Source: Bacteroidota bacterium
Lineage (GTDB): Bacteria > Bacteroidota > Ignavibacteria > UBA10030 > SZUA-254
Assembly: GCA_035495255.1 (NCBI GenBank)
Contig: DATJGD010000063.1
Coordinates: 1 to 64,000 of the forward strand
Length of the DNA: 64,000 bases
Direction of reading: 5' to 3'
The stretch's first letter is position 1; each line of letters begins with the position of its first letter. Below the pieces are notes generated by a model that saw only the letters and a list, made by a program, of their open reading frames with translations, ran no database searches and was not told the origin of the DNA. This document shows, piece after piece, positions 1 through 18,135 of this stretch. The position numbers were made by a program, and so were the translations under genes.

Positions 1-35
1 CAATTCAATCCGATATCAGTTGAGCGAAAAATGCC

Positions 36-1085
36 TTAGCCCTCGGTCGCGGCAAAAATATTATGATTCTTATCTATGGCGATTGATGAAACAAACGTAT
101 TCGTAATCCCTGTGTTTGATTGTACCCAGGTATTCCCATAGTTTGTTGACCGAAAAATGCCGCCTTTAAACGTGCCCGCATATATGTTGTCCGAGGAGTC
201 GATGTACATCGCGTACACGATGAGATGGGTTAGACCAGCGTTGACCTGTATCCAGCTGTCCCCGTTATCCGAAGATTTATAAATTCCGTTGTAAGGGCTT
301 CCTACGAAGATATTGTCGTTTGAAGCTATTTGTAATGGGCTGGCATAATTAGAGGGCAAACCCTTACTCGCCTTTGACCAATTCTTTCCGTTGTCCTGCG
401 AACGGTAGATCCCAAAAGGTACCCCTGCAAAAATGTCTCCTTGGGAATTAATTGCGAGGGCGCGTACATCAAAAAAGTCTGAGCCGTTTGTAAGATGTAT
501 CCATTTGTGGCCATCGTTTTTTGATACGTATATGCCCTCATTACCCGTTCCTATATAAATATGTCCATGTCTATCAAAGGCAAATGAAAAAACTATTGCG
601 GGATATGTCAGGCCCCGGTTCATTTCGTTCCAAGACTTGCCGTTATCGTCAGACCTGAATACTCCGTTGCTCGTTCCCGCGAGAAGATGCTTATGAGTAT
701 CCATAGCAAGCGTCCAAACACGCAAATTTGATAAACCGCTGTTCGCGGGCCTCCAGGTTCTTCCGTTGTCTGACGATGTGAAAATACCATCTCCGTCGGT
801 TCCGGCGAACAGGATTCCTTGAGAGGCTACTAAAAGTGACTGAACTTCCTGTGTGATTCCGCTATCTGTTTCAATCCATTTTCCCGCCCGGTCTGCTGAA
901 TGAAATACCATCCTATTTTCAGTAGCCGCGTAAAGATCTTTGCCATTACCTGAAATTCCATGGACGGTGCCTCCATACGGTCCGTTCGTTCGTTGCCAAA
1001 ACGGTATTTGACTCAATGCCAGGTTACAAAATAAGGATGCAAGGAGTAATAGCTTAGGTAGGATTCTCTCCAGACGTGGATACAT
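36..1085 (-). CDS. Secreted BNR/Asp-box repeat beta-propeller protein (Ycf48/sialidase-like). True start is MYPRLERIL at 1085; the listed ORF 36..1238 is over-extended at its N-terminus.
   Basis: There are at least five SxDxGxxW Asp-box repeats (SDNGRTW, SDDNGKSW, SQDNGKNW, SSDNGDSW, STNYGNTW). An N-terminal signal peptide is present. The ATG overlaps the TAA of the upstream gene as TAATG. Confidence 0.6.
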   Translation of the reverse strand: MYPRLERILPKLLLLASLFCNLALSQIPFWQRTNGPYGGTVHGISGNGKDLYAATENRMVFHSADRAGKWIETDSGITQEVQSLLVASQGILFAGTDGDGIFTSSDNGRTWRPANSGLSNLRVWTLAMDTHKHLLAGTSNGVFRSDDNGKSWNEMNRGLTYPAIVFSFAFDRHGHIYIGTGNEGIYVSKNDGHKWIHLTNGSDFFDVRALAINSQGDIFAGVPFGIYRSQDNGKNWSKASKGLPSNYASPLQIASNDNIFVGSPYNGIYKSSDNGDSWIQVNAGLTHLIVYAMYIDSSDNIYAGTFKGGIFRSTNYGNTWVQSNTGITNTFVSSIAIDKNHNIFAATEG

Positions 1086-1408
1086 TACCCCATGCCGACT
1101 TTCTTTCTCGCCGCCTCGGACATCATTCCCGTGTGCCACTGCGGTTCCCAGACGATGCGGATATCGCATTCGTGGACGCCCGGAAGGTCGAGTACCCGCT
1201 CGCGCGCCATGTTCGAGATCGCTCCCCCCATGCCGCATCCGGGGGTTGTCAGCGTCATTTTTACACCTACCCAGTCATCGATGATCTTAACGTCGTACAC
1301 CAGGCCAAGCTCGACGATATTTACCGGGATCTCGGGATCGTACACTTCCCGTAAAGCTTCGATGACCTGCGATTCCGTGATTTCTGTGGCGGATTTCTCT
1401 TCGTTCAT
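1085..1408 (-). CDS. DUF59 / MIP18-family Fe-S cluster assembly protein (SufT-like)
   Basis: 107 aa. The sequence carries the conserved DUF59 signature (EALREVYDPEIPVNIVELGLVY ... TTPGCG) typical of SufT/PaaD-like proteins. Confidence 0.6.
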   Translation of the reverse strand: MNEEKSATEITESQVIEALREVYDPEIPVNIVELGLVYDVKIIDDWVGVKMTLTTPGCGMGGAISNMARERVLDLPGVHECDIRIVWEPQWHTGMMSEAARKKVGMG

Positions 1409-1487
1409 GATTTTTCAAAGATATTACAATAAAAATGTAAGCGATTTATCGAAGGATTGCAACCCGCAGCCCGGACGACTAATCTGC

Positions 1488-2504
1488 TTACGCAAGATCG
1501 AGAATCGTTTCGCGGCCGCCGTCGCGAATAACGGCAATGCACCGTATTGCATCAGATTGGCGGATGATGTTCCTGGATTTGTCAATCCCCAGGACAAACA
1601 TGCCTGTTGAGAGCGCGTCAGCTCCACTAGCTGTCGGAGCGATGACGGTGCTGCTCAGGATCTTCGAGGCCGTTCTTCCGCTCGCCGGATCGAGAATGTG
1701 GCCGATACTCCCGCCGTCCGCTTCAATACTATTCTCGTAGTTTCCCGACGTTGAGAGGGCCTGATCACGAATCGTTACGCTCGTTATGATGTTCTCAGGT
1801 TCCATGGGATCGACAATTCCGACTTCCCATGCCTCTTCATCCGGTGGGGCGCCCAGGGCATATATATCCCCGCTGTGATTGACGAGCGCGGACTCGATTC
1901 CATGTTCTTTCAGAATTGTGATCGCTCTATCGATTGCAAAGCCTACGGCAATTCCTCCAAGGTCTAATTTCGTCTGAGCATACCGTAGATTCACCGTTGA
2001 GCGGCTGGCATCAACTGCGACATTACGCATTCCCACCGCGTCGAGTGTGATCGCTATTTGCTTATCTGTGGGAAAATGGTGAATGCTCTTGTCGTCACGA
2101 AATCCGTACAGCTCCATCAAAGGTTCTACCGTGATATCGAACGCACCGCCGGTCAATGCGCTATATTTTTTCGCGCTTTGCAGGACCTCGATAATTCTCG
2201 TATCGACGACGAGTTCCTTATCGAACGCACGATTATTTACAGCAGACAATTGGCTCTGTTCGTCGAACACGCTCATCAGCCTGTCGACTGATTTCATTTC
2301 GCTGATCGCTTCATCGATCGCCAGGTTGCAGCGCGCTTCGTCACCACAGTACGCCTTGAACGTAACGATGCTTCCCATCGCAAATGCCGCCCGTTCGACA
2401 TACCGCATCGGAGTGATGGTCTTCGCGAACGATTGGAAGGGCCGGAGTGTCGTGCCGAGGAGCAGTCCCGTCGAGAGCTTTAAAAATGTCCGGCGGGAAT
2501 TCAT
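1488..2504 (-). CDS. apbE: FAD:protein FMN transferase ApbE (periplasmic flavin transferase), Tat signal
   Basis: 338 aa. The N-terminus has an RRTFLK twin-arginine motif. Overall similarity is to the ApbE family (..GGIAVGFAIDRA.., ..SGNYE..). Its ATG overlaps the stop of the upstream 4-TM gene as ATGA. Confidence 0.8.
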   Translation of the reverse strand: MNSRRTFLKLSTGLLLGTTLRPFQSFAKTITPMRYVERAAFAMGSIVTFKAYCGDEARCNLAIDEAISEMKSVDRLMSVFDEQSQLSAVNNRAFDKELVVDTRIIEVLQSAKKYSALTGGAFDITVEPLMELYGFRDDKSIHHFPTDKQIAITLDAVGMRNVAVDASRSTVNLRYAQTKLDLGGIAVGFAIDRAITILKEHGIESALVNHSGDIYALGAPPDEEAWEVGIVDPMEPENIITSVTIRDQALSTSGNYENSIEADGGSIGHILDPASGRTASKILSSTVIAPTASGADALSTGMFVLGIDKSRNIIRQSDAIRCIAVIRDGGRETILDLA

Positions 2505-2995
2505 TTACGTATCCAGAGGTCCTTTAAAATAAGAAGGACCATGATGACGTAGCACGCCACCATCGAGATGCCCGAGAGGAGGACCATCCAGCTGAAATAC
2601 TCCGACACGAACCGCATCAGCCAGATTCCTCCGAATGTTGTGCCGATCGCGCCAAACGGCTCAACCAACAGGATGTCTTTGAATACGCCCGGCCGGAGAG
2701 AATGAAAATAAAAGATCGCGCCCACCGCGGCAAACACGAGTGAGAGCGATAGAATATGATTGTGGAGGAAGATATACATCTCATCGGCGCTCTTCGCGTA
2801 TTTCAGCTCCGCCGATTCCACGTTCTCCGGCGTACCCCGGAAATGTTCGCTTAAACCCCTGGTTGTGCCCGATGTGGTGTGGTCCACGAACAAGAGCCCG
2901 ATGGCATATCCCGAGCTGAGCACGATGAGGAATGCCGTAATAAATAACCGCAGCGTACGGTCCGCATCGCGCAGAGTCCAGCGCTGTCCGTTCAT
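2501..2995 (-). CDS. His-rich 4-TM membrane protein (DUF4405-like, putative b-type cytochrome / transmembrane electron carrier)
   Basis: 164 aa with four predicted TM helices. His residues sit at the helix ends (VDHTT, LHNHIL, FYFHSL). It lies between the FMN-binding protein and ApbE, and its start overlaps the FMN-binding gene's stop as TAATG. Confidence 0.45.
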   Translation of the reverse strand: MNGQRWTLRDADRTLRLFITAFLIVLSSGYAIGLLFVDHTTSGTTRGLSEHFRGTPENVESAELKYAKSADEMYIFLHNHILSLSLVFAAVGAIFYFHSLRPGVFKDILLVEPFGAIGTTFGGIWLMRFVSEYFSWMVLLSGISMVACYVIMVLLILKDLWIRK

Positions 2996-3534
2996 TATAA
3001 TGTTCCCTTCAGCAAGTCGTACGTCAGAAGAATCTTCCTGACACCAGTCGTAATCGCTCTGACTGAAATAGTCGCACCGCTGATGTTCTTGATGTCCTTC
3101 CCTGGTATCAGCTTGTCGGCCGAAGATTTGTCGCGGAACTGCCTCCGGAAAGACTCGTATGCCACTTCGCCTCCATAGGATTCGCGGTACGCTAAAATGT
3201 CGACATCCTGCACCTTGCCGTCGGTGTTTATCCCCGTGAGGTAGGTGATGAATTGGACCTTCCCTTTTACATCGTCGACAAATCCGTATCCCACGGTCTT
3301 CTGATGCGCTGAACATACGTAGACCTGCAGGGAATCGCGCTGCCATCTGCTGTGTGAGAGCCGTGCGATCGAATCTATCTCTGAACCAGACAGCCTTCGC
3401 CACGAAGAAGAGATGGCCGCTGAGTCTCCGAACATTTTGTGAAGTCCGGCTTTCGCCTTGTCTTCAATCGTCGATTGTCCCCGCGAGCTTGCTGCGAAGG
3501 CAATGAAACACAGGAAGCAGAGGAGCGATTTCAT
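2995..3534 (-). CDS. Secreted FMN-binding domain protein (FMN_bind; predicted ApbE flavinylation substrate)
   Basis: 179 aa with a signal peptide. The C-terminal motif DIKNISGATISVRAITTG matches the Dxx(S/T)GAT(S/T) flavinylation motif found in RnfG/NqrC/NosR-type FMN_bind domains. Confidence 0.65.
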   Translation of the reverse strand: MKSLLCFLCFIAFAASSRGQSTIEDKAKAGLHKMFGDSAAISSSWRRLSGSEIDSIARLSHSRWQRDSLQVYVCSAHQKTVGYGFVDDVKGKVQFITYLTGINTDGKVQDVDILAYRESYGGEVAYESFRRQFRDKSSADKLIPGKDIKNISGATISVRAITTGVRKILLTYDLLKGTL

Positions 3535-3536
3535 TC

Positions 3537-4646
3537 TCAGAAACTATATCCTATTCCGAAGTTCAGCTGTTTCGTGTTGACATCTGCGGCATTGTTGAAA
3601 AATTGATAGTCAATCTTAAACGCCGTGTTGAATGTCGGCTTGAAGGTAGCGCCGACGGTGGTGACATTCCGGTCGTAGAGCGGGTTTGCCGCAAATCCCG
3701 TGACTTTCGCCTGGGTATTGAATTTTTCGCAGCGGATAAACGGGGAGAGTGAAAATTCACTTTCGGCGCATAAGAGAGGCATCACGTCGTAGGCGCCTTC
3801 GATATAATAACCGTAGATCTGATCGGCGACATCGTTGCCATACACAGCGTTAATCTTGTCGGCGTCGCTGATGGCGGCAAAAGCGCCGACGGCCCGGAAC
3901 GTGAAACCGTTGGTGGAATACTGTGCATTGGCGGAGACGAGACCGACCGTCCCGCTTCCAAGCGCGGAATCACCTTCCGTTGTGCTGCCGACAAAAAACG
4001 AAGCGCCAAGCTTGAGGTCGGTGTTGGGTACGACATCGATGCGGCCTGTGATCGAGGGATTCATCGGCGAACTCTCGAGCGCTTCCTGGCGGCTTCCACG
4101 AAGGCCCTCTTCGCCGGACAAACCTTCAGCCCTGAGCCCCGCCATGGCGTATAATTGGTATGACGTGTTTTCCGCAAACGATCCGTAAATGCCTGCACCG
4201 GCTTCTCTCCACGTTGTCGGGATAACGACATCATCGACGCTGGGCCGTTCGACCCCGTTAAATGTCGGGGGCTCGTGGATTTGATTGATAACTCCGATAG
4301 GGGCAAGAATGATTCCGGCCTTCATCCCGAGATGTTCGGAAAAATGCCAGTCGAGGTATGCCTGCTCGATCGCGACCTCTCCTCCTTCAGCGCCGCCGGA
4401 ACCGGTCGCCTCGATCTTCGTGTGCTCAATTTCCACTTCCGACTTAAATGAAATCTTTTCATTAAACGTATGCCCCAGGTACAGGACGAACCGGTGAAAA
4501 TCGAGCGTTCCGCGGGCAGCCCCGTCCGGTTCATTGTAGTGCAGCTCGCCGTAGCCGCCGATGCTGGTGGTTTCCTGCGCGGAGGCAGCGAGAGTAAATG
4601 ACAGAGCGATGAACATGAGTGAAGTACGGCGTAGAAAGTTTTGCAT
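3537..4646 (-). CDS. Outer-membrane beta-barrel porin-like protein (start at MQNFLRR)
   Basis: It has a signal peptide ending ..AASAQ. The sequence shows an alternating amphipathic beta-strand pattern that is Gly/Ser/Thr/Tyr rich. The C-terminus ends in ..GIGYSF with an aromatic residue, as in OM barrels. Confidence 0.55.
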   Translation of the reverse strand: MQNFLRRTSLMFIALSFTLAASAQETTSIGGYGELHYNEPDGAARGTLDFHRFVLYLGHTFNEKISFKSEVEIEHTKIEATGSGGAEGGEVAIEQAYLDWHFSEHLGMKAGIILAPIGVINQIHEPPTFNGVERPSVDDVVIPTTWREAGAGIYGSFAENTSYQLYAMAGLRAEGLSGEEGLRGSRQEALESSPMNPSITGRIDVVPNTDLKLGASFFVGSTTEGDSALGSGTVGLVSANAQYSTNGFTFRAVGAFAAISDADKINAVYGNDVADQIYGYYIEGAYDVMPLLCAESEFSLSPFIRCEKFNTQAKVTGFAANPLYDRNVTTVGATFKPTFNTAFKIDYQFFNNAADVNTKQLNFGIGYSF

Positions 4647-4705
4647 TGGCAGCTTCCGTAAGTGAGTAATCGTGGTATGGAATAATGGTGACAAGGAGAA
4701 GAGCA

Positions 4706-5986
4706 CTATTGCTCTTTTGTCACGTCGAAATATTTTCTCTGTTTCTGCAAATCGACAACACGAATTTCTATATTTCCCTCATGAAGGCGCGAAGCGAGAA
4801 AGATCGGCGCGCATCCGTTACCCTCCATCGATCCGCTGTTGGAATCGTCGGGCGGCTCATCCGTCGCCTGGCGGAGCTTGCTGAGGGGGGAGGGCGCGTC
4901 ACAGAGCGAGCAAATCAGCTCGCCATTTTTCAAATAGTACTTGCCGTAGCTGTAGCAGGCATAACATGCATCAAAGGCGGTCCCGAATTTGCCAAGGCCG
5001 AGGCGGAGAATAAAGAATCGAATCTCCAGCCCGTTGTCCTCGATGGTAAAGCGATGAATTGCATTATCGCTCACGCGGGTGATCGGTATCCTCACGACTC
5101 CGGAAGAAGGTACCGGGACTGACTCTGCCGAAAAATCCATTGAAGTGTTCGACGAGAAGATCTCTCCGACCCCGAGGAAAAGAACCAGTCCCAGGGAGGC
5201 AATCGCGGCGGAGAGCTGCCAGCGCCGCTGAGGACGTGAAGATCCCGTACCGCTGCTGCGGCCGGGAATGAAGAACATTACCGCCGGAATACACACGATC
5301 GCGATAATGAAGAGCACTTCATGCTGAACGATCGGTCCCAGGATACCCATCATGTGCGGGTTTGCGGGGAACACTCCGTACTCGTAAAACTCGTGCAGGG
5401 AGTTGACGACGAGCTGGAGCGCAAAGATCAACAATGTTATCGCCGTGACCTTGAGAAAGCGGACGATGTCGATGCGGATGCTTCCGCGGATAAAGAGTAC
5501 GGCGAAGACCACGGCGATCGAAAACCCTGCAAGCGTGCCCAGCAGGCTTCCCCATGCGTTTGTGCTCAGAGAGACCGCCTGGAGAAATATCGCCGTTTCG
5601 ATTCCTTCACGGACAATCATAAAAAACGTGAAGCTGATGATACTGAGATGTGCGCGCCACTGCCCGGATGCCTCGACGATGGTGTTCACCCGCTGTTCGA
5701 TCTCTCCTTTGATCTTTTTGCCTGTAAACCACATCCAGACAACCATGGAGATGACAAAGACTGCGGCAATAAGCTGGAAGAGGCCTTCGAGCGATTCCTG
5801 GTCGATCGCCAATTTTTGAAATATCATCGCCCCGCCGATGCTGGCGACGATTGCGAGGCAGAGCCCGAGATAGACGGAGCTGACCAGGAAGGGGCTTCCG
5901 ATCTTCTGGAGGTAGACAACGAGAATCCCTATAACAAGCGCTATTTCTATTCCCTCGCGAAGGGCGATAATTAACGATTCAACCAT
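4706..5986 (-). CDS. FTR1/EfeU-family high-affinity iron permease fused to a C-terminal Cys-rich (DUF2318-like) domain
   Basis: There are two REGIE motifs (REGIEIA, REGIETA) within TM helices, which are the hallmark of FTR1 permeases. The C-terminal ~120 aa carry CYACYSYG..CSLCD, i.e. two CxxC pairs. Confidence 0.75.
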   Translation of the reverse strand: MVESLIIALREGIEIALVIGILVVYLQKIGSPFLVSSVYLGLCLAIVASIGGAMIFQKLAIDQESLEGLFQLIAAVFVISMVVWMWFTGKKIKGEIEQRVNTIVEASGQWRAHLSIISFTFFMIVREGIETAIFLQAVSLSTNAWGSLLGTLAGFSIAVVFAVLFIRGSIRIDIVRFLKVTAITLLIFALQLVVNSLHEFYEYGVFPANPHMMGILGPIVQHEVLFIIAIVCIPAVMFFIPGRSSGTGSSRPQRRWQLSAAIASLGLVLFLGVGEIFSSNTSMDFSAESVPVPSSGVVRIPITRVSDNAIHRFTIEDNGLEIRFFILRLGLGKFGTAFDACYACYSYGKYYLKNGELICSLCDAPSPLSKLRQATDEPPDDSNSGSMEGNGCAPIFLASRLHEGNIEIRVVDLQKQRKYFDVTKEQ

Positions 5987-5989
5987 AAC

Positions 5990-6436
5990 CTAAGATTTTT
6001 TCTTCGATTGGCACTTTGCGCATGTCCCGAAAATCTGAAGAGAGGAATTGCGCGGGCGAAATCTTTTCTCCTCACACACTTCCCGTTGGATCTTTTCGAG
6101 CTTATCATTGACAAATTCGATTATTTCGCCGCAATCGAGGCAAATGAGATGGTCATGACGGGGCCGGCCAAATGCTTTTTCGTACCGGGAATGATCCTCG
6201 CCAAATTGGAGCCGTGAAATCAATCCGCATTCGACAAGGAGGTCGAGGGTATTATAGACGGTGGCACGCGAGGCCTTCAGTCCTTTTTGGTTGAGAGAGG
6301 CGAACAACTGATCGGCATCAAAATGCCCGTTCGATTGCATTATCTGTTCGAGAAGAAGAAACCGCTCCTTTGTAGGGCGCAGCCTCTTTTCTTTCAAATA
6401 TGACGATAGTGTGGTTTTTGCAGCTTCGATATCCAA
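5990..6436 (-). CDS. fur: Ferric uptake regulator Fur (TTG start)
   Basis: An N-terminal winged helix is present. The HDHLICLDCGEIIEF block is nearly identical to the E. coli Fur metal-site block. There is a C-terminal CxxC. Confidence 0.8.
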   Translation of the reverse strand: MDIEAAKTTLSSYLKEKRLRPTKERFLLLEQIMQSNGHFDADQLFASLNQKGLKASRATVYNTLDLLVECGLISRLQFGEDHSRYEKAFGRPRHDHLICLDCGEIIEFVNDKLEKIQREVCEEKRFRPRNSSLQIFGTCAKCQSKKKS

Positions 6437-6450
6437 GAGAGGGACCTTCT

Positions 6451-6465
6451 TTAGACTTAGTCTAA
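6451..6465. promoter_or_regulatory. 7-1-7 inverted repeat TTAGACT-T-AGTCTAA, 15 nt upstream of fur. It overlaps the predicted -7 box and +1 of the fur operon, making it a candidate Fur-family operator.
   Basis: It is a near-perfect palindrome. The 7-1-7 architecture matches that of Fur/PerR/Zur boxes. A minus-strand TAtaTTTA -7-like element sits at 6463-6470. Confidence 0.35.
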
Positions 6466-6649
6466 ATATAAATAATTAAAACAGAAATTACAAATTGCGT
6501 CTTAACCGCGGAATACGGGAAGTGGATTTAAAGAAAGGGCGGATCAGACTGACTGAAAACACTCCGTAACACCCCTCAAAAGCGTCCCAAAAAGGGCAAT
6601 TATCCCATAGAATCCAGAACCCTCAAAAATCTTCAATTTTCCAAAGATT

Positions 6650-6719: not shown

Positions 6720-7835
6720 GTGAAGCAGGATAAGAATAAGCATATCAAGGGCAGACCGATCGTTCCGAAGCCGGTCCCCAAGAATGTCCCCGTTACGAAG
6801 CTCGTAGACGAATATTTTCAAGCATATAATGCAGGCAGATTGAGGGAAGCATGCCATCTTTTCTCGCACAAAATGCTTGCAAAGGATGTAACAGTGGGAA
6901 TGAGCCTCACGGGTGCCTTAACTCCTGCCGGATTAGGCGGTTCATGCATCGTACCGCTCATGAAAGCCGGATATGTCGATTGGATCGTCAGCACAGGCGC
7001 GAACTTGTATCATGATACACACTTCGCTATAGGCCATACGCTTCATCGCGGAACGCCGTTTTCAGACGATCGATTGCTTCGCCAGCGCGGGATTATCAGG
7101 ATTTATGATATCGTATTCGATTATGAGGTGCTGCTCTCAACCGACGCCTACTTCAGGACACTTCTTCGATTGCCCGAATTTCAACGGGAAATGGGGACTG
7201 CAGAGCTTCATTACCGTTTGGGAAAATACATCGCAGCTCGCGAAAAAGTCCTCGGCATCAAGCACAGCAGCGTGATTGCGACGGCCTATCGATGCGGTGT
7301 TCCTATCTATACTTCTTCGCCCGGGGACAGCTCAATCGGCATGAATATCGCCGAAGTCGCGTTGACCGGCCATAAAATCAGAATTGACGTGCTCCTCGAT
7401 GTCAATGAGACGGCTGCGATCGTCCTGGATGCGAAACGCAAAGGGGGAAAGAGCGGCGTTCTCATCATGGGTGGAGGGTCGCCGAAGAATTTTGTCCTTC
7501 AGACCGAACCGCAGATTCAGGAAGTCTTGAAGATCGATGAGAAAGGGCATGATTTTTATCTCCAGGTGACCGATGCCCGTCCCGATACCGGCGGCCTTTC
7601 AGGCGCCACGCCGGCCGAGGCTGTTACATGGGGAAAAGTCGATCCGGATAAGCTGCCCGACGCCGTTGTGGCGTATCTCGACTCGACGATTGCGCTGCCG
7701 ATTATGACGTCGTATGCCCTCGCGAATGCCAAGCCGAGAAAGCTCAAGCGGCTTTACGATCAACGAAGGATTCTGGTCGCGAATCTCTATGACGAATATC
7801 AAAAAGTGTTGCGTCGCAAGAAAAAAATTAAATAA
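6720..7835 (+). CDS. Deoxyhypusine synthase-like protein (DHS family), GTG start
   Basis: 371 aa. It has the DHS-family blocks [15 protein letters not shown] and MGGGSPKNF, and its length matches the family. Confidence 0.6.
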
Positions 7836-7909
7836 CAACATAATCAAATCCCAAAAGGACTCGCCAATCAAATGGCGGGGAAAATTCATCCACATCATGG
7901 AGGGAAAAC

Positions 7910-8110
7910 ATGAGCCGATTCACCGAATTGCGGGACCTGCTGAATAGCTACGAGAAGGATTTTATCAAGTTTTACGAGAAAGGCAACAAGTCCGCCGGAA
8001 CTCGCGTGCGAAAAGAGATGAACGAGCTGAAGAAAAAAGCTCAGGACATTCGCAAAGAGATCCAGGAAATCAAGCAAAAAGCGAAGGAATCCGAAGGCGG
8101 AGGAATGTAA
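7910..8110 (+). CDS. Histone H1-like nucleoid protein (Hc1 family)
   Basis: 66 aa, highly basic. The motif KGNKSAGTRVRKEMNELKK resembles the Hc1 N-terminal domain. A GGAGGG SD lies 7 nt upstream. Confidence 0.5.
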   Translation: MSRFTELRDLLNSYEKDFIKFYEKGNKSAGTRVRKEMNELKKKAQDIRKEIQEIKQKAKESEGGGM

Positions 8111-8229
8111 TTACTTTTTAGTTCGTGTTGGCAGGAGACTTTTTCGGTTCCGTTCGCGGGGCCGGGGAAGTCTCTTGCTCTTTATAGGGGCTTTTCGTTA
8201 GATTACTCCAACCTCACAACGGAATTCTC

Positions 8230-9414
8230 ATGAAGATTTTCATTCTGGCCGCCGCGGCCATGGTCTGCACTTGCCTTTCCTTTGGCCAGGTTGCGGATTA
8301 CAAAAGAATACATTTCGATGCGCTTGTCGTCGATACGCACAACGATGTCGTCCAGCGAATGCTCGGCGGAGAAGATATTTCGAAACTGACGCATCACGGC
8401 CAATCCGATCTTCCGCGGTGGAAGGAAGGAGGGTTGGATGTTCAGATGTTCTCAATCTGGGTGCCGCCGGAGCAGACAAAGAAAAGCTATTATGCGCAAT
8501 CGGATGAGCAGATCGATTCCGTCGAAAGCCTCGCGAGGAGGACCCCCGACCGCGTTGGCATGGCCTATTCCACTAAAGATATTCAACGGCTCGTCAAGGA
8601 GGGGAAATTTGCCGCAATGCTCGGAATGGAAGGGGGACATCCGATCGATAACGACCTGAAAAAGCTTGAGCATTTCTACAAGCGGGGCGTCCGCTACATG
8701 ACCTTAACTTGGAATAACAGCCTCGATTGGGCCACCTCGGCGAAGGACGAAACCGATCCCGAAGCCAAACTGCCGCACAAGGGACTGACACAATTCGGTA
8801 AAAAGGTCGTAAAAAAGATGAACGAACTTGGAATGATGGTCGATATTTCGCATGTCGGCGAACAAACATTCTGGGATGTACTGAAGGTTACCAGGAAACC
8901 GGTCATCGCATCGCATTCCTCTGCCTGGGCGCTCTGCCATCACAGGCGAAACCTTAAGGATGAACAGCTGAAGGCGATTAAGAAAAACGGAGGCGTGGTG
9001 TTTATTAACTTCTATCCGGCGTTCATCGACAGCACGTTTAACCGAAAAGAACAGGCCATGCAGGAACAGAATAAGGCGAAAATCGATTCCTTGAACAAAG
9101 CGGTCAAGGTAGAAGGCTTTCTCCAGGGACAGTATGTTGCGGAGCTTATGAAGGACGATTACGAGCCGTTCCGCCCGCCGCTCTCTACGCTCGTCGATCA
9201 TTTTGATTACGTTGCAAAGCTTATCGGCGTCGACCATGTCGGCATCGGATCTGACTTCGACGGTATAGAAGTAGCACCCAAAGACATGGATGATGTGACA
9301 CACTACCCAAACATTACCCGCGAACTCCTCAAGAGAGGGTATTCCGAATCTGATGTCAAAAAAATCCTCGGCGGGAACTTCATGAGGGTATTGAAAGAAG
9401 TCGAAAAGCATTGA
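8230..9414 (+). CDS. Membrane dipeptidase, peptidase family M19 (renal dipeptidase-like), secreted
   Basis: It has a signal peptide. DTHND and HVGIGSDFDG metal-binding motifs are present. Confidence 0.8.
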   Translation: MKIFILAAAAMVCTCLSFGQVADYKRIHFDALVVDTHNDVVQRMLGGEDISKLTHHGQSDLPRWKEGGLDVQMFSIWVPPEQTKKSYYAQSDEQIDSVESLARRTPDRVGMAYSTKDIQRLVKEGKFAAMLGMEGGHPIDNDLKKLEHFYKRGVRYMTLTWNNSLDWATSAKDETDPEAKLPHKGLTQFGKKVVKKMNELGMMVDISHVGEQTFWDVLKVTRKPVIASHSSAWALCHHRRNLKDEQLKAIKKNGGVVFINFYPAFIDSTFNRKEQAMQEQNKAKIDSLNKAVKVEGFLQGQYVAELMKDDYEPFRPPLSTLVDHFDYVAKLIGVDHVGIGSDFDGIEVAPKDMDDVTHYPNITRELLKRGYSESDVKKILGGNFMRVLKEVEKH

Positions 9415-11494: not shown

Positions 11495-12904
11495 TTGAGC
11501 ATTACATATTTTCTCGCACTGATGAAACTTCTCTTCTGCTCTCTCCTTCTGTCGTTATCGGTATCCGCCTATACCCAACAGGATTCAGTCCTTAATTTCC
11601 CTGTTCTGGATGCGATGGCAATTCACGCCGGCGATTCGGCACACCCGGTTGCGCTGGTGAATAATACCTCTTCAATGCTCCTGGGGGAGACAAACGCGTT
11701 GAGCCAATATGCGTGGGACGGATTCATCGTGGCAGGCCGCGAAATGATGAAAGACTATGCCTTTCAGATGGACGATCTGTCGCTGCGGCGGGACGAAGTC
11801 ACCGATGTTGTCGTGTCGCCGTATTCCCTGACACGGTTCTATCGTAATGGTGTTGAGGAAAACGTCTATTTTCTGGATTCGGTCAATGCGCTGGTTGTTG
11901 ACCTCAAGAACGCCCGCGGAAAGGGGCTGTCGGTTCATCCTTCGTTCAGCGGCGGAACACACGATATCGATTTCTCACCTCTGTTCGAGCTCAATGTGCT
12001 TATGATTTCAAGAACCAATCATATGGTCCGGACAACAAAGGAAGATTACCCGGCCACGGTCGCGTTGTCGTTTCTCAATGAACTTTACTCGGCTGCGGCC
12101 TTCTATGAATCTCAGCCGGTCGGTTCATACTTTTCTCCGGCATATATCAGCACGGTCAAGCAGGACACCCTGCACCGGCTTCTCATTACCGTCGGGGATT
12201 CTCTCAAGGATGCCTACGTTCGATTAAAGCGGGTTGCCAAGAATTTCGACCAGATCAAGCTCAACACGGATGCGCGACGGGCTGGGTTTATCTCGGCAGT
12301 ATCGCCCGCCACAGCAGATTCGACAACCCGTCTTGCCTTCTCATGGGCGGCGGCGGGATCTGCCGCGCTCTGGTCGGGCAAAGAGAATGTAAAATATCTT
12401 CAACAGCCCGCCGGGGCCGGGGCGCCTTCCATTCCGGGATCCGAACTTTTCTATCTCAACGGCGGGATGAACTATCTGCGCGCCTTGCTGGCACTTCAGG
12501 ATACCGACATAACCCGTTCGTCGTACGGTGAAATCCGGGGTTCATCGGCGTCCTCGTACGATGTTTCCGGCTGGTCCGTCCTCGCCATCGATCGATATGT
12601 GAGAGCCTCTGCAGACTCAGGGCTTGCGCGACAGCTGTATCCCTCCGTCCGCCGGACGATCGACGGGACGCTGCGCTACCGGGCCGAGCAGAACGGACAA
12701 CTAAAACACGCGTGCATGGATGGACAGTCTGTTTCTCTCTACGGAAGCGCAAAGAAAGGAAAAGCGGCGTATGCGGGGGCGCAGGCGGTTTGGCTTGCTC
12801 AGTTGGATGCCGGAATACGTCTGGGAATACGCACGGGCGACGCTGCGTCAGCCGATAAATGGAAAAAAATCCGGGGCCGTCTCGCAAAAAGCTTGAGCAT
12901 GTGA
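11495..12904 (+). CDS. Hypothetical secreted protein (469 aa)
   Basis: It has a signal peptide. I recognised no catalytic motif. Its stop is 3 nt from the PhzF start. Confidence 0.5.
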   Translation: MSITYFLALMKLLFCSLLLSLSVSAYTQQDSVLNFPVLDAMAIHAGDSAHPVALVNNTSSMLLGETNALSQYAWDGFIVAGREMMKDYAFQMDDLSLRRDEVTDVVVSPYSLTRFYRNGVEENVYFLDSVNALVVDLKNARGKGLSVHPSFSGGTHDIDFSPLFELNVLMISRTNHMVRTTKEDYPATVALSFLNELYSAAAFYESQPVGSYFSPAYISTVKQDTLHRLLITVGDSLKDAYVRLKRVAKNFDQIKLNTDARRAGFISAVSPATADSTTRLAFSWAAAGSAALWSGKENVKYLQQPAGAGAPSIPGSELFYLNGGMNYLRALLALQDTDITRSSYGEIRGSSASSYDVSGWSVLAIDRYVRASADSGLARQLYPSVRRTIDGTLRYRAEQNGQLKHACMDGQSVSLYGSAKKGKAAYAGAQAVWLAQLDAGIRLGIRTGDAASADKWKKIRGRLAKSLSM

Positions 12905-12907
12905 ATT

Positions 12908-13699
12908 ATGTCAGTCCCCATTTACCAGGTAGATGCGTTCGTTTCAGACCGAAAGTTTTCCGGCAATCCTGCGGGTGTATGCATTCTTCCGGAGAAAGCG
13001 GATGACGCGTGGATGCAAAACGTGGCGATGGAAATGAATGTCTCCGAGACGGCATTTCTCGTGAAACGCTCCGATGGTTACGATCTTCGCTGGTTCACGC
13101 CGTCGGTGGAAGTCGCGCTCTGCGGGCACGCGACACTGGCGAGCGCGCATGTGCTCTGGGAGACGGGCCAGCTCGGCAAGGAAATGCCCGCACGGTTTCA
13201 CACGAAAAGCGGATTGCTTACCGCTGAACGGAGGGAAGAATTCGTCGAGATCGATCTTCCCGCAGTAGTCGAAGCTGCTGAGACCCCTCCGCCGGAGCTT
13301 CTCATCGCTCTGGGTATCACCGCACAGTACGCCGGGAAAAACCGATTCGACTACCTTATCGAGGTTGAGTCTGAGAGCATTGTTCGCGGCATCAGGCCGG
13401 ATTTCACTACGCTTCGAAAGCTACCGGTACGCGGAGTCATGGTGACGAGCCGTTCTCAAGATCCGGCATATGATATTGTCTCAAGGTTTTTTGCGCCGGG
13501 GGCTGGAGTGGATGAAGATCCCGTTACAGGGTCTGCACACTGCTGCCTTGCACCATATTGGAGTGCAAAGCTCGGCAAGACTGAACTTGTTGCGTACCAG
13601 GCGTCGCCGCGTGGCGGAGTACTGCATCTGAAAGTTGCCGGCGACCGGGTCAAACTTGCAGGCACCGCGGTTACGGCGTTACGAGGAGAGCTGCTCTAG
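12908..13699 (+). CDS. PhzF-family isomerase (phenazine biosynthesis-like protein)
   Basis: 263 aa. The N-terminal block is typical of the PhzF/YHI9 family (IYQVDAF.. ..GNPAGV.. ..ETAF.. ..LRWFTP..E..LCGHATLA). Confidence 0.8.
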   Translation: MSVPIYQVDAFVSDRKFSGNPAGVCILPEKADDAWMQNVAMEMNVSETAFLVKRSDGYDLRWFTPSVEVALCGHATLASAHVLWETGQLGKEMPARFHTKSGLLTAERREEFVEIDLPAVVEAAETPPPELLIALGITAQYAGKNRFDYLIEVESESIVRGIRPDFTTLRKLPVRGVMVTSRSQDPAYDIVSRFFAPGAGVDEDPVTGSAHCCLAPYWSAKLGKTELVAYQASPRGGVLHLKVAGDRVKLAGTAVTALRGELL

Positions 13700-17990: not shown

Positions 17991-18030
17991 TTGAAAATAA
18001 AAATGCCGTTCTCAGAGCAAAGAAAACGGC
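17991..18030 (-). terminator. Intrinsic terminator forming the riboswitch expression platform
   Basis: The minus strand reads GCCGTT(TT)CT-ttgctctg-AGAACGGC followed by ATTTTTATTTT. It lies between the aptamer and the receptor ATG at 17973. Confidence 0.6.
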
Positions 18031-18035
18031 ACGAA

Positions 18036-18135
18036 TTTTCTCCGTTTTCCTACGCTGGCATGATCCAGATCAGGTTTCCAGGGTTTTTCTCAGCCTCCCG
18101 ACGATTCGGGAGACACCCCTAACGGCTACACGAAA
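18036..18135 (-). ncRNA. TPP (thiamine pyrophosphate) riboswitch aptamer, THI-box
   Basis: The minus strand reads GCCGTTAGGGGTGTCTCCCGAATCGTCGGGAGGCTGAGAAAAACCCTGGAAACCTGATCTGGATCATGCCAGCGTAGGAAAACGGAG. This contains the canonical CUGAGA, ACCC and ACCUGAUCUGGAU(A/C)AUGCCAGCGUAGGA blocks, with the P1 stem formed by CCGTT/AACGG. Confidence 0.85.

Follow-up and report, generated by a model that had tools for sequence, protein, structure and literature searches.

In Campylobacter jejuni, the periplasmic domain of FetA is a DUF2318 domain and is required for iron uptake by FetMP (PMC10783030). FMN_bind genes have been described in P19/FTR1 clusters (PMC6083913, PMC8238504), and flavinylated extracytosolic systems encoded beside ferrous transporters, some of them Fur-regulated, have been proposed to act as assimilatory iron reductases (PMC8238504). 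Fur control has been reported for some of the PepSY-like clusters (Méheust 2021, PMC8238504; Huang 2024, PMC11334425). An initial annotation of the DNA analysed here mentioned surveys that place FMN_bind near iron transporters, and Liu 2018 (PMC6083913) and Méheust 2021 (PMC8238504) bear this out. We examined an eight-gene operon in a 64-kb stretch of DNA (the window) and lean, at somewhat better than even odds, toward reading it as a soil Bacteroidota/Ignavibacteria-type iron-starvation operon, in which Fe(II) transporters are supplied by a periplasmic flavin-based module that reduces ferric iron and is repressed by Fur. It would be a new form of a scheme already in print, in which flavinylated proteins act as assimilatory iron reductases.

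Organization of the operon

The operon is real as first described, with eight co-directional, tightly packed ORFs on the minus strand. Its first gene, fur (5990-6436), starts with TTG and encodes a 148-aa Fur-family regulator (Pfam FUR, 1.8e-30). There follow an FTR1 permease fused to an FtrD-like domain (4706-5986; Pfam FTR1 1.3e-31, FtrD-like, the old DUF2318, 8e-16), an outer-membrane 16-strand OprP-like porin with a signal peptide (3537-4646), a secreted RnfG/NqrC-like FMN_bind protein (2995-3534; Pfam FMN_bind 1.3e-10) and an inner-membrane protein with four transmembrane helices (4-TM; 2501-2995). The last three genes encode a Tat-exported ApbE flavin transferase (1488-2504; Pfam ApbE 3e-75), a cytoplasmic DUF59 (SufT-like) protein (1085-1408; Pfam FeS_assembly_P/DUF59 1e-19) and a secreted BNR/Asp-box beta-propeller (36-1085; Pfam BNR/Sortilin repeats).

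Reading the junctions in the sequence corrected two details. Gaps of 3, 59 and 2 nt separate fur from the permease gene, the permease gene from the porin gene and the porin gene from the FMN_bind gene, and the largest gap, between ApbE and DUF59, is 79 nt, beyond the 2-60 nt given initially. Three junctions overlap rather than four: FMN_bind/4-TM and DUF59/BNR by 1 nt each (TAATG), and 4-TM/ApbE by 4 nt (ATGA). A fourth overlap would arise only if the porin began at GTG, which is improbable; with its ATG start the porin matches a 369-aa NCBI model identically.

The permease carries two REGIE (RExxE) motifs, and an eighth TM helix links it to a periplasmic Cys-rich FtrD-like/DUF2318 domain (CYAC-x14-CSLC-x29-C). 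It is a FetM-FetA-type fusion. A clade of such fusions, 33% identical, retains FetB/C-like FtsX permeases and a FetD-like ATPase; neither P19 nor a cupredoxin is encoded in the operon studied here. The porin scores below threshold against Pfam Porin_O_P, and its invariant residues are rich in His and Glu.

The FMN_bind protein has RnfG as its closest solved structure (1e-6) and carries SGATIS at residues 152-157, with flavinylation predicted at Thr155; the motif [ST]GAT[IL]S is kept in 73/73 homologs. ApbE, whose N-terminus (MNSRRTFLK) contains the twin-arginine motif SRRTFLK, probably flavinylates the SGATIS threonine.

Pfam assigned the FUR, FTR1, DUF2318/FtrD-like, FMN_bind, ApbE, DUF59 and BNR families as originally proposed, and only the identity of the 4-TM protein had to be revised. 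Annotated as a candidate bis-His electron conduit, with DUF4405 as the family to test, it gave no Pfam match to DUF4405 and falls instead in PF27139 (Aq_1264_TM), a family of 623 clusters at 50% identity. Only G54, H78 and H80 are invariant, the HxH lying at the periplasmic start of TM2. A four-histidine di-haem conduit was rejected, as the four conserved histidines are absent and the two invariant ones sit at one membrane depth. The AlphaFold model (pLDDT 82) has four long helices; structural and PDB searches returned no specific relative beyond generic four-helix bundles, and no cofactor or quinone site is recognisable. With two invariant histidines, no such site and no structural relative, a role for the protein as electron entry point is argued from position, not chemistry.

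The last two genes stand apart from the flavin system with which they had been grouped. The DUF59 protein, below the cut-offs of the NCBIfam SufT and SUF_assoc models, is encoded after Fur-FTR1/FtrD even at loci that have no porin-FMN_bind-4TM genes (L094, L097, L100 and L103-105), and so belongs to the Fur/transporter module. The BNR gene is translationally coupled to DUF59 at this locus, and an in-frame TAA at 36-38 cuts its ORF within a repeat unit (IFAATEG*GIFRSTDIGLN). No BNR homolog was found near about 170 related loci, and we rejected the propeller as a conserved part of the system.

A conserved porin-FMN_bind-4TM triad

Porin, FMN_bind and 4-TM genes form a conserved triad across the Fibrobacteres–Chlorobi–Bacteroidetes (FCB) superphylum, an independent and unstudied unit. 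Rosettibacter primus and Fodinibius sediminis are among the organisms in culture that possess it. Among 80 species-level loci from FCB phyla with a 4-TM homolog, FMN_bind adjoins the 4-TM gene in 76 and the porin lies directly upstream in 74, and contig ends account for all but one of the exceptions. Gene order is permuted at one locus (L175) with the triad link kept, and the order Fur-FTR1-porin-FMN_bind-4TM recurs at 27% identity (L172). ApbE directly follows the 4-TM gene at 21/80 loci; a distant 4-TM homolog overlaps ApbE (L173). In Melioribacteraceae, a secreted MsrB is encoded upstream of the triad.

The iron transporter that accompanies the triad is interchangeable. Where at least 3 kb lies upstream of the porin (53 loci), we found FTR1 at 4, FeoB, confirmed by Pfam, at 11 and Fur at 14. 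The triad stands behind Fur-FeoAB at 10 species-level loci and behind Fur-FTR1 at 4; at L033, FeoAB precedes it and Fur was not detected. Most triads are stand-alone, with no adjacent iron transporter in 38 of these 53, so that the operator described below is their sole link to iron. Genes that do attach to the triad are always concerned with iron or haem uptake: besides FTR1 and FeoAB, an SBP gene precedes it in Balneolaceae and an HmuY-like gene flanks it at other loci. The pairing of a flavin module with FTR1, central to the initial annotation, holds at this locus but is not FTR1-specific, and Fur-FTR1/FtrD-DUF59 in turn occurs in sister genomes that lack the triad. At L107, the genes for FMN_bind, 4TM and ApbE give way to one for a Tat-exported Rieske protein, located behind a paralogous porin. 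This points to a redox partner as the functional slot and parallels the way in which thioredoxin and FMN_bind alternate in Fet clusters (PMC6083913).

The regulator and its candidate operator

The Fur-family regulator falls below the cut-offs of all NCBIfam Fur and PerR models, and its sequence does not by itself assign it to Fur over PerR or Zur. Iron is its likely signal because the genes that it heads are FTR1 or FeoAB. A candidate Fur operator, the 8-1-8 palindrome TTTAGACTaAGTCTAAA (6450-6466, minus strand), abuts a -10-like TATATT and occurs once in the window, against a chance expectation of 0.05 matches. A consensus scan places a promoter-like site here, TTGTAA and TATATT with a 17-nt spacer (6465-6493, minus strand); TTGAC-type -35 and TATATT -10 elements recur at the same distance in relatives.

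The operator is conserved. It sits just upstream of fur in every Fur-headed relative, and in stand-alone triads it lies upstream of the porin, again abutting a -10 element. Allowing at most one mismatch, it is found within -130 to +30 of the fur or porin start at 37/68 species-level loci, at a density of 2.95 per kb versus 0.0088 per kb elsewhere (about 335-fold; Poisson P about 3e-79); about 45% of testable loci have no recognisable operator. Each half-site of the Marinimicrobia palindrome, tGAGAATnATTCTCa, is one mismatch from the classical Fur 7-1-7 box. The operon is thus probably repressed by Fur and induced by iron starvation.

Proposed mechanism and alternatives

The operon consists of two modules, each also found separately. 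One comprises Fur, the inner-membrane iron permease (FTR1-DUF2318/FtrD-like) and cytoplasmic DUF59, and the other the porin-FMN_bind-4TM triad, here with its own Tat-exported ApbE. In the mechanism that we propose, the porin would pass an iron cation or small ferric complex across the outer membrane, and the covalently flavinylated periplasmic protein would reduce Fe(III) to Fe(II). Electrons would run toward Fe(III), reaching the flavoprotein through its 4-TM partner; as the 4-TM family has no cytoplasmic domain, the quinol pool is their most likely source. Fe(II) would then be imported by the co-encoded inner-membrane transporter, FTR1-FtrD here and FeoAB in sister genomes. Both the neighbourhood comparison, with Fur-FeoAB outnumbering Fur-FTR1, and the Fur-box-like operator present in most lineages favour ferric reduction feeding an Fe(II) route, as the initial annotation had suggested. 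Counting against it, the reaction classically linked to FTR1-family permeases is oxidation of Fe(II), not reduction of Fe(III), and the Fur-FTR1/FtrD-DUF59 module also exists without the triad.

The triad may instead serve another function and lie near iron transporters through a shared regulator, which we regard as unlikely. It could spare iron in starvation by supplying a periplasmic flavin carrier in place of an iron-containing one, or the HxH 4-TM protein could be an inner-membrane metal channel whose substrate the flavoprotein conditions. The many triads with no neighbouring transporter fit such a role, since the product is then either not iron or iron that something else must bring in. 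Lying where the membrane meets the periplasm, the invariant HxH resembles a metal site as much as a cofactor site, the His/Glu-rich porin invariants are those expected of a cation or metal pore, and the Melioribacteraceae MsrB also speaks for this view. Tight coupling to an outer-membrane porin, however, runs contrary to a purely internal electron carrier, and the attached genes always serve iron or haem uptake. The TM helices hold few conserved polar residues, atypical for a transporter, and in one 4-TM homolog the periplasmic loop bears a haem-c motif (CxxCH), which points to redox chemistry.

It is less probable still, and in our view doubtful, that electrons run the other way, from iron to flavin to membrane. 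Fe(II) would then be oxidised at the mouth of the permease and the resulting Fe(III) imported by FTR1, as in yeast Fet3/Ftr1 and Bordetella/Brucella FtrABCD, and FMN_bind with the FtrD-like domain and the 4-TM protein would form an electron sink replacing P19/cupredoxin. Both RExxE motifs and the FtrD-like domain are indeed present and P19/cupredoxin is missing; the Cys domain takes its Pfam name from FtrD, reportedly the proposed electron acceptor in the FtrABCD model. Studies of the Fet system leave the redox direction open (PMC10783030). Against this reading, the triad accompanies FeoAB at 11 loci versus 4 for FTR1, and FeoAB transports Fe(II) without any need for oxidation. The triad is usually stand-alone and so is not an FTR1 accessory, and FTR1/FtrD is itself found without it. 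Studies of the Fet system leave the redox direction open (PMC10783030).

A conduit spanning the cell envelope and serving dissimilatory (respiratory) reduction of extracellular Fe(III), a flavin-based analogue of porin-cytochrome complexes, would share the layout of inner-membrane protein, periplasmic redox protein and outer-membrane barrel, and Gram-positive extracellular electron transfer does use flavinylated proteins (PMC8238504), but one FMN cannot span the periplasm and outer membrane, and the Fur-type operator and uptake-transporter linkage indicate assimilation, making this reading highly improbable.

Comparison with known systems

The porin is 12% identical to the Pseudomonas phosphate-specific porins OprP/OprO, and, judged from residue identities, its invariants appear dominated by His/Glu rather than by an arginine ladder. 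The FMN_bind protein shares its fold and SGAT flavinylation motif with RnfG/NqrC of the Rnf and Nqr complexes. It differs in having a cleavable-looking signal peptide instead of a TM anchor and an unrelated 4-TM partner, and no other Rnf or Nqr subunits are encoded here.

Like Bordetella/Brucella FtrABCD, the operon has an FTR1 permease (FtrC) that would act with a membrane redox protein resembling FtrD when iron is limiting, PF10080 being 'FtrD-like' in Pfam. It lacks P19 (FtrA) and the cupredoxin (FtrB), whereas FtrABCD has a proposed Fe(II) oxidation and no flavoprotein.

[quoted passage not shown] Here, by contrast, FetM and FetA are fused in one protein, and P19/FetP, the FetBCD ABC module and the thioredoxins give way to an outer-membrane porin, the PF27139 4-TM protein, ApbE and DUF59.

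Flavinylation-associated systems with PepSY-like/FoxB, MsrQ-like, NapH-like or DUF4405 proteins, proposed to be assimilatory iron reductases (Méheust 2021, PMC8238504; Huang 2024, PMC11334425), likewise place ApbE and an extracytosolic FMN_bind protein beside a small membrane protein and a ferrous-iron transporter. The membrane partner here is PF27139, with two invariant histidines at one depth and not four in two layers, the transporter is FTR1 or FeoAB instead of VIT1, and a dedicated porin belongs to the unit.

Results

The operon at 36-6466 carries eight co-directional genes on the minus strand. An ORF listing and direct reading of that strand bore out this part of the initial annotation and gave the order fur (5990-6436; Pfam FUR, 1.8e-30), an FTR1 permease fused to a Cys-rich domain (4706-5986; FTR1, 1.3e-31; FtrD-like, the renamed DUF2318, 8e-16), an outer-membrane barrel or porin (3537-4646), FMN_bind (2995-3534; 1.3e-10), a four-transmembrane (4-TM) protein (2501-2995; PF27139 via its homologs), apbE (1488-2504; 3e-75), DUF59 (1085-1408; FeS_assembly_P/DUF59, 1e-19) and a BNR propeller (36-1085; BNR-type Pfam repeats). 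Pfam thus assigned the FUR, FTR1, DUF2318, FMN_bind, ApbE, DUF59 and BNR families as anticipated. From fur to the propeller the junctions are a gap of 3, a gap of 59, a gap of 2, an overlap of 1, an overlap of 4, a gap of 79 and an overlap of 1 nt. Three junctions therefore overlap rather than the four first described, and the largest gap exceeds the 2-60 nt range given for them. A GTG start for the porin that would overlap the FTR1 stop was rejected in favor of the ATG at 4646, which is preferred by the signal peptide and by an identical 369-aa NCBI model; that model, from 'MAG TPA Bacteroidota bacterium' (locus tag VL633_08850), matches the window porin at 100% identity. A soil-type metagenome contig (L092) is likewise 100% identical to the window from FTR1 through ApbE. 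Counts of intrinsic terminators and additional promoters within the operon did not exceed those in shuffled sequence.

The chromosomal neighborhood of the operon is conserved. Upstream, on the plus strand at 6720-9414, lie deoxyhypusine-synthase-like, Hc1 histone-like and M19 dipeptidase genes, identified by translation similarity, and they keep their order in related MAGs such as L004. An extra short-chain dehydrogenase gene in the relatives' neighborhood is missing from the window. Elsewhere in the 64 kb, the sole Rfam match is a TPP riboswitch at 18030-18130 on the minus strand (RF00059, 71.7 bits), and no tRNA genes were found.

Porin, FMN_bind and 4-TM genes form a conserved triad. The 4-TM alignment was run against one genome per GTDB species and picked up 80 loci, spread over Ignavibacteria, Melioribacteraceae, Rosettibacter primus, Balneolaceae including Fodinibius sediminis DSM 21194, Neomarinimicrobiota and Calditrichota, and neighboring genes were mapped by tblastn of the window proteins. 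In 76 of the 80 loci FMN_bind immediately precedes the 4-TM gene, and in 74 the porin in turn lies before FMN_bind; all but one of the exceptions fall at contig ends. The association survives deep divergence. Locus L172 reads Fur, unfused FTR1, porin, FMN_bind, 4-TM, with a 4-TM protein 27% identical and a porin 37% identical (2e-76) to those of the window. In the permuted L175, a 372-aa protein separates 4-TM from FMN_bind; it has no Pfam match and weakly resembles the window porin (E 0.009). In L173 a 4-TM homolog overlaps ApbE.

The locus fits an ApbE-dependent flavinylation system, in which FMN attachment is predicted. The FMN_bind protein begins with a hydrophobic, signal-like N-terminus and carries the expected acceptor motif SGATIS at residues 152-157; its consensus, [ST]GAT[IL]S, is kept in 73 of 73 homologs. 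ApbE, which had been called Tat-exported, does open with a Tat motif (MNSRRTFLK). Its start overlaps the 4-TM stop in the window, and it comes next after the 4-TM gene in 21 triad loci. In one Ignavibacteriales group (L038, L047, L069), a Tat-signal NusG_II-domain protein sits between the two.

The membrane component belongs to PF27139 (Aq_1264_TM), a small family. Precomputed annotation places this domain on all but one of 118 4-TM homologs; the model is newer than our local Pfam copy, and the window protein's assignment follows its homologs' annotation. Distant relatives were drawn from a representative library, the profile homolog search having listed only close ones. An exhaustive HMMER search of 1.84 billion representatives returned 623 clusters at 50% identity. 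The DUF4405 identity expected for the window protein did not hold, giving no local Pfam match at E up to 10; PepSY, MsrQ and other known cytochrome families gave none either at E = 10, and the protein had no hit of any other kind in the local Pfam or NCBIfam models. A search of PDB sequences with the 4-TM profile found no relative, and the literature yielded no published description of the triad or of PF27139. Since its link to FMN_bind and ApbE holds across diverged loci, PF27139 is, by gene context, a flavinylation-associated membrane family, one not listed in the 2021 and 2024 surveys. The text supplementary tables of Méheust 2021 (PMC8238504) hold no Ignavibacteria, PF10080 or PF03239 entries.

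Conservation in the 4-TM protein centers on a single HxH motif. Just three residues (G54, H78 and H80) stay invariant across 37 diverse members, with the HxH at the periplasmic start of TM2; H39, H51 and H98 of the window protein are not conserved. PepSY, MsrQ and DUF4405 cytochromes instead bind two b haems through four conserved histidines arranged in two layers (Huang 2024, PMC11334425). With only two invariant histidines, two residues apart on TM2, a four-histidine di-haem wire of that style is excluded. One homolog, P0279 (L089, 1201-1932), has ~70 extra residues in its periplasmic loop, immediately ahead of the HxH helix, and this insertion contains a CVVCH haem-c motif; the start of P0279 overlaps a URO-D-like gene upstream.

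The porin is unusually rich in invariant histidine and glutamate. Its 16-strand barrel falls in the general/specific porin class (OprP-type), and it scores 19.2 bits against Pfam Porin_O_P, whose gathering score is 20.9. The invariant residues are mostly His (H36, H51, H59, H75, H124) and Glu (E34, E70, E72, E74, E94, E125, E133, E148), together with an invariant loop, NxxHEPPTFNGVERP. Because E70, E72 and E74 alternate on one strand, they face one side. We infer that these residues may line a cation- or metal-selective lumen.

A conserved palindrome marks the head of the operon. Directly upstream of fur, at 6450-6466, lies a perfect 8-1-8 palindrome, TTTAGACTaAGTCTAAA, which occurs once in the window, where chance would give 0.05 matches, and abuts a -10-like TATATT. 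Every Fur-headed relative has TTTAGAC[CT]AA[GT]TCTAAA at the same place, with variable flanks; stand-alone triads carry the same palindrome ~45-100 nt upstream of the porin start, and in Balneolaceae it precedes a gene for a solute-binding protein (SBP). Allowing at most one mismatch, 37 of 68 testable loci have it close to fur or the porin, where its density is 2.95 per kb, compared with 0.0088 per kb in other sequence (Poisson P ~3e-79). The classical 7-1-7 Fur box is TGATAATnATTATCa, and a Marinimicrobia variant, tGAGAATnATTCTCa, differs from it by one base per half-site, so the motif reads as a diverged Fur box. In five Melioribacteraceae/Rosettibacter loci (L034, L043, L055, L057, L067) the candidate operator is a shorter palindrome, ATTTAGtCTAAAT, nested in a longer 14-1-14 repeat. 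The regulator itself scores below cut-off with the NCBIfam Fur, PerR, Zur and Irr models, which fail to type it as Fur versus PerR or Zur; its iron specificity is inferred from the FTR1 and FeoAB cargo. The locus pairs a Fur-family regulator with a conserved inverted repeat, a candidate operator overlapping the putative promoter.

The operon is modular. In 53 loci the sequence upstream of the porin covers at least 3 kb; it holds Fur in 14 of these, FTR1–FtrD (the permease fused to the FtrD-like domain) in 4 and FeoAB in 11, with FeoB confirmed by Pfam; the remaining loci have housekeeping neighbors, and most triads lack an adjacent transporter. Other iron-related neighbors are the SBP gene, which lies ahead of the triad in Balneolaceae, and the HmuY-like lipoproteins on either side of it in L085. 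Conversely, scanning metagenomes with the FTR1–FtrD alignment uncovered Fur–FTR1/FtrD–DUF59 with no triad in close relatives (L094, L097, L100, L103-105), and the triad plus ApbE inserted between permease and DUF59 in L093, L095 and L096. In a close relative, L107 (9376-10969), a paralogous porin comes after Fur–FTR1/FtrD, and next to it a Tat-exported Rieske [2Fe-2S] protein stands in place of FMN_bind, 4-TM and ApbE, a non-homologous replacement of the periplasmic redox partner. Because a Rieske protein takes the place of the flavin genes, the functional slot appears to be that of a periplasmic one-electron carrier.

Other loci carry additional genes beside the triad. The Fur-headed operon of L028 (5866-8220) has DoxX, DUF438–hemerythrin–PAS_10 and DUF1858 proteins between FeoB and the porin, which may be oxygen- or iron-sensing additions. 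The five Melioribacteraceae/Rosettibacter loci encode a secreted MsrB (SelR with a signal peptide) and a SPOR-domain protein, co-directional and just upstream of the triad.

The two genes at the 3' end differ in their ties to the system. DUF59 occurs in 15 triad loci, all within the window's clade, and belongs with the transporter module, plausibly handling Fe-S in the cytoplasm. The BNR propeller, counted as a component in the initial annotation, was dropped, having no counterpart near any related locus. Its ORF stops at a TAA at 36-38 (minus strand) within a repeat unit (IFAATEG*GIFRSTDIGLN), and the repeat runs on in frame past it to the window edge (1-200, minus strand); the in-frame TAA could reflect a nonsense mutation or pseudogene, an error in sequencing, or a gene split in two.

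The permease is a fusion of Fet-type parts. Its FTR1 portion has two REGIE (RExxE) motifs at residues 10 and 126, and its Cys domain reads CYAC-x14-CSLC-x29-C, a pattern kept in four aligned fusion homologs; a PDB sequence search returned no match for the fusion. No P19/FetP gene is present in the operon, all eight genes falling in other families, and Pfam found no FetBCD ABC module (two FtsX permeases and an ATPase) there. Only in a separate, large soil clade of FTR1–DUF2318 fusions at ~33% identity (L108-L171, for example L171 at 12098-13303) do two FtsX/MacB-type permeases and an ABC ATPase come next; this clade is a FetM–FetA fusion with FetBCD. Its ATPase carries a fused DtxR-type Fe_dep_repr_C metal-binding domain, an uncommon pairing of ATPase and sensor, and upstream lies a 171-aa protein, often in multiple copies, that has no Pfam match.

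Discussion

The locus is best interpreted, from sequence and synteny, as a Fur-repressed reductive iron-uptake system. The porin would admit iron or a small ferric complex across the outer membrane, and the ApbE-flavinylated periplasmic protein would reduce Fe(III). The HxH 4-TM partner would give electrons to the flavoprotein, probably from quinol, since no PF27139 member has a cytoplasmic domain. Fe(II) would then enter through FTR1–FtrD in the window and through FeoAB in sister genomes. The flavin-dependent reductase first proposed for this locus is thus partly supported: modular synteny sharpens the picture, and the 4-TM identity and BNR membership fell away.

Two steps of this scheme admit other explanations. 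The 4-TM protein's electron-transfer role is argued from position, not chemistry. The triad might have a different Fur-regulated function, or the 4-TM protein might be a transporter; we regard this as unlikely. The second concerns direction. FTR1 usually works in an oxidase–permease direction, and the flavin module might act as a sink for electrons from Fe(II) oxidation. Reduction is favored chiefly by the interchange of FTR1 with FeoAB, which is Fe(II)-specific, and we consider the electron-sink explanation improbable. That the triad is a conduit for dissimilatory Fe(III) reduction seems very improbable.

Returning to reductive uptake, a broader and more tentative proposal is that the triad is a self-contained, Fur-controlled trans-envelope machine for reductive iron acquisition across the Fibrobacteres–Chlorobi–Bacteroidetes superphylum, with PF27139 as a new class of quinol:flavoprotein oxidoreductase and a metal-selective porin. 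We hold this possible, with somewhat more doubt than confidence. PF27139 would then be a further flavinylation-associated transmembrane electron-transfer type beyond the 2021 and 2024 catalogs, with a cofactor site built from the HxH, possibly across a dimer, and the porin would be a His/Glu-lined metal-selective channel.

These loci bear on how Gram-negatives lacking siderophore machinery make importable Fe(II) from insoluble Fe(III) in the periplasm, and on where FTR1/P19-type systems obtain reducing power. The gene set is compact, conserved in several phyla and clearly marked by its regulatory signature, and it comes with natural experiments in which the module is swapped between FTR1 and FeoAB or replaced by a Rieske protein. 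Cultured carriers, Rosettibacter primus and Fodinibius sediminis, make the idea directly testable. The analysis gives a first functional context for PF27139 and for P19-less FTR1–DUF2318 fusions, and the proposed Fur-box variant of Ignavibacteria and related lineages could be used to map iron regulons.

The system extends a published concept rather than introducing a new principle. Several flavinylated membrane systems beside ferrous transporters, some Fur-regulated, have been proposed as assimilatory iron reductases, and 260 P19 clusters with FMN_bind were counted (Méheust 2021, PMC8238504). This locus follows the same logic with a different membrane partner and a dedicated porin. The general concept already stands as a bioinformatic hypothesis; new here are the composition, the membrane family, the porin and the operator. 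A phosphate-selective arginine ladder marks OprP-type porins; the invariant residues of this porin are mostly His and Glu.

The closest comparison is with Fet/P19 clusters. In Campylobacter jejuni, iron-limited growth depends on FetA together with FetM (FTR1) and FetP (P19); DUF2318 is the periplasmic domain of FetA, and a redox or Fe-S-binding function has been suggested for its conserved CxxC…CxxC…C motif (PMC10783030, PMC6083913). In the position where Proteobacteria encode thioredoxins, Actinobacteria, Firmicutes, Spirochaetes and Synergistetes carry an FMN-binding protein instead (Liu 2018, PMC6083913). The operon shares with these clusters a two-RExxE FTR1 permease and a FetA-type periplasmic DUF2318 domain. 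It differs in lacking P19, FetBCD and thioredoxins, in fusing FetM to FetA, and in having a different membrane partner and its own porin.
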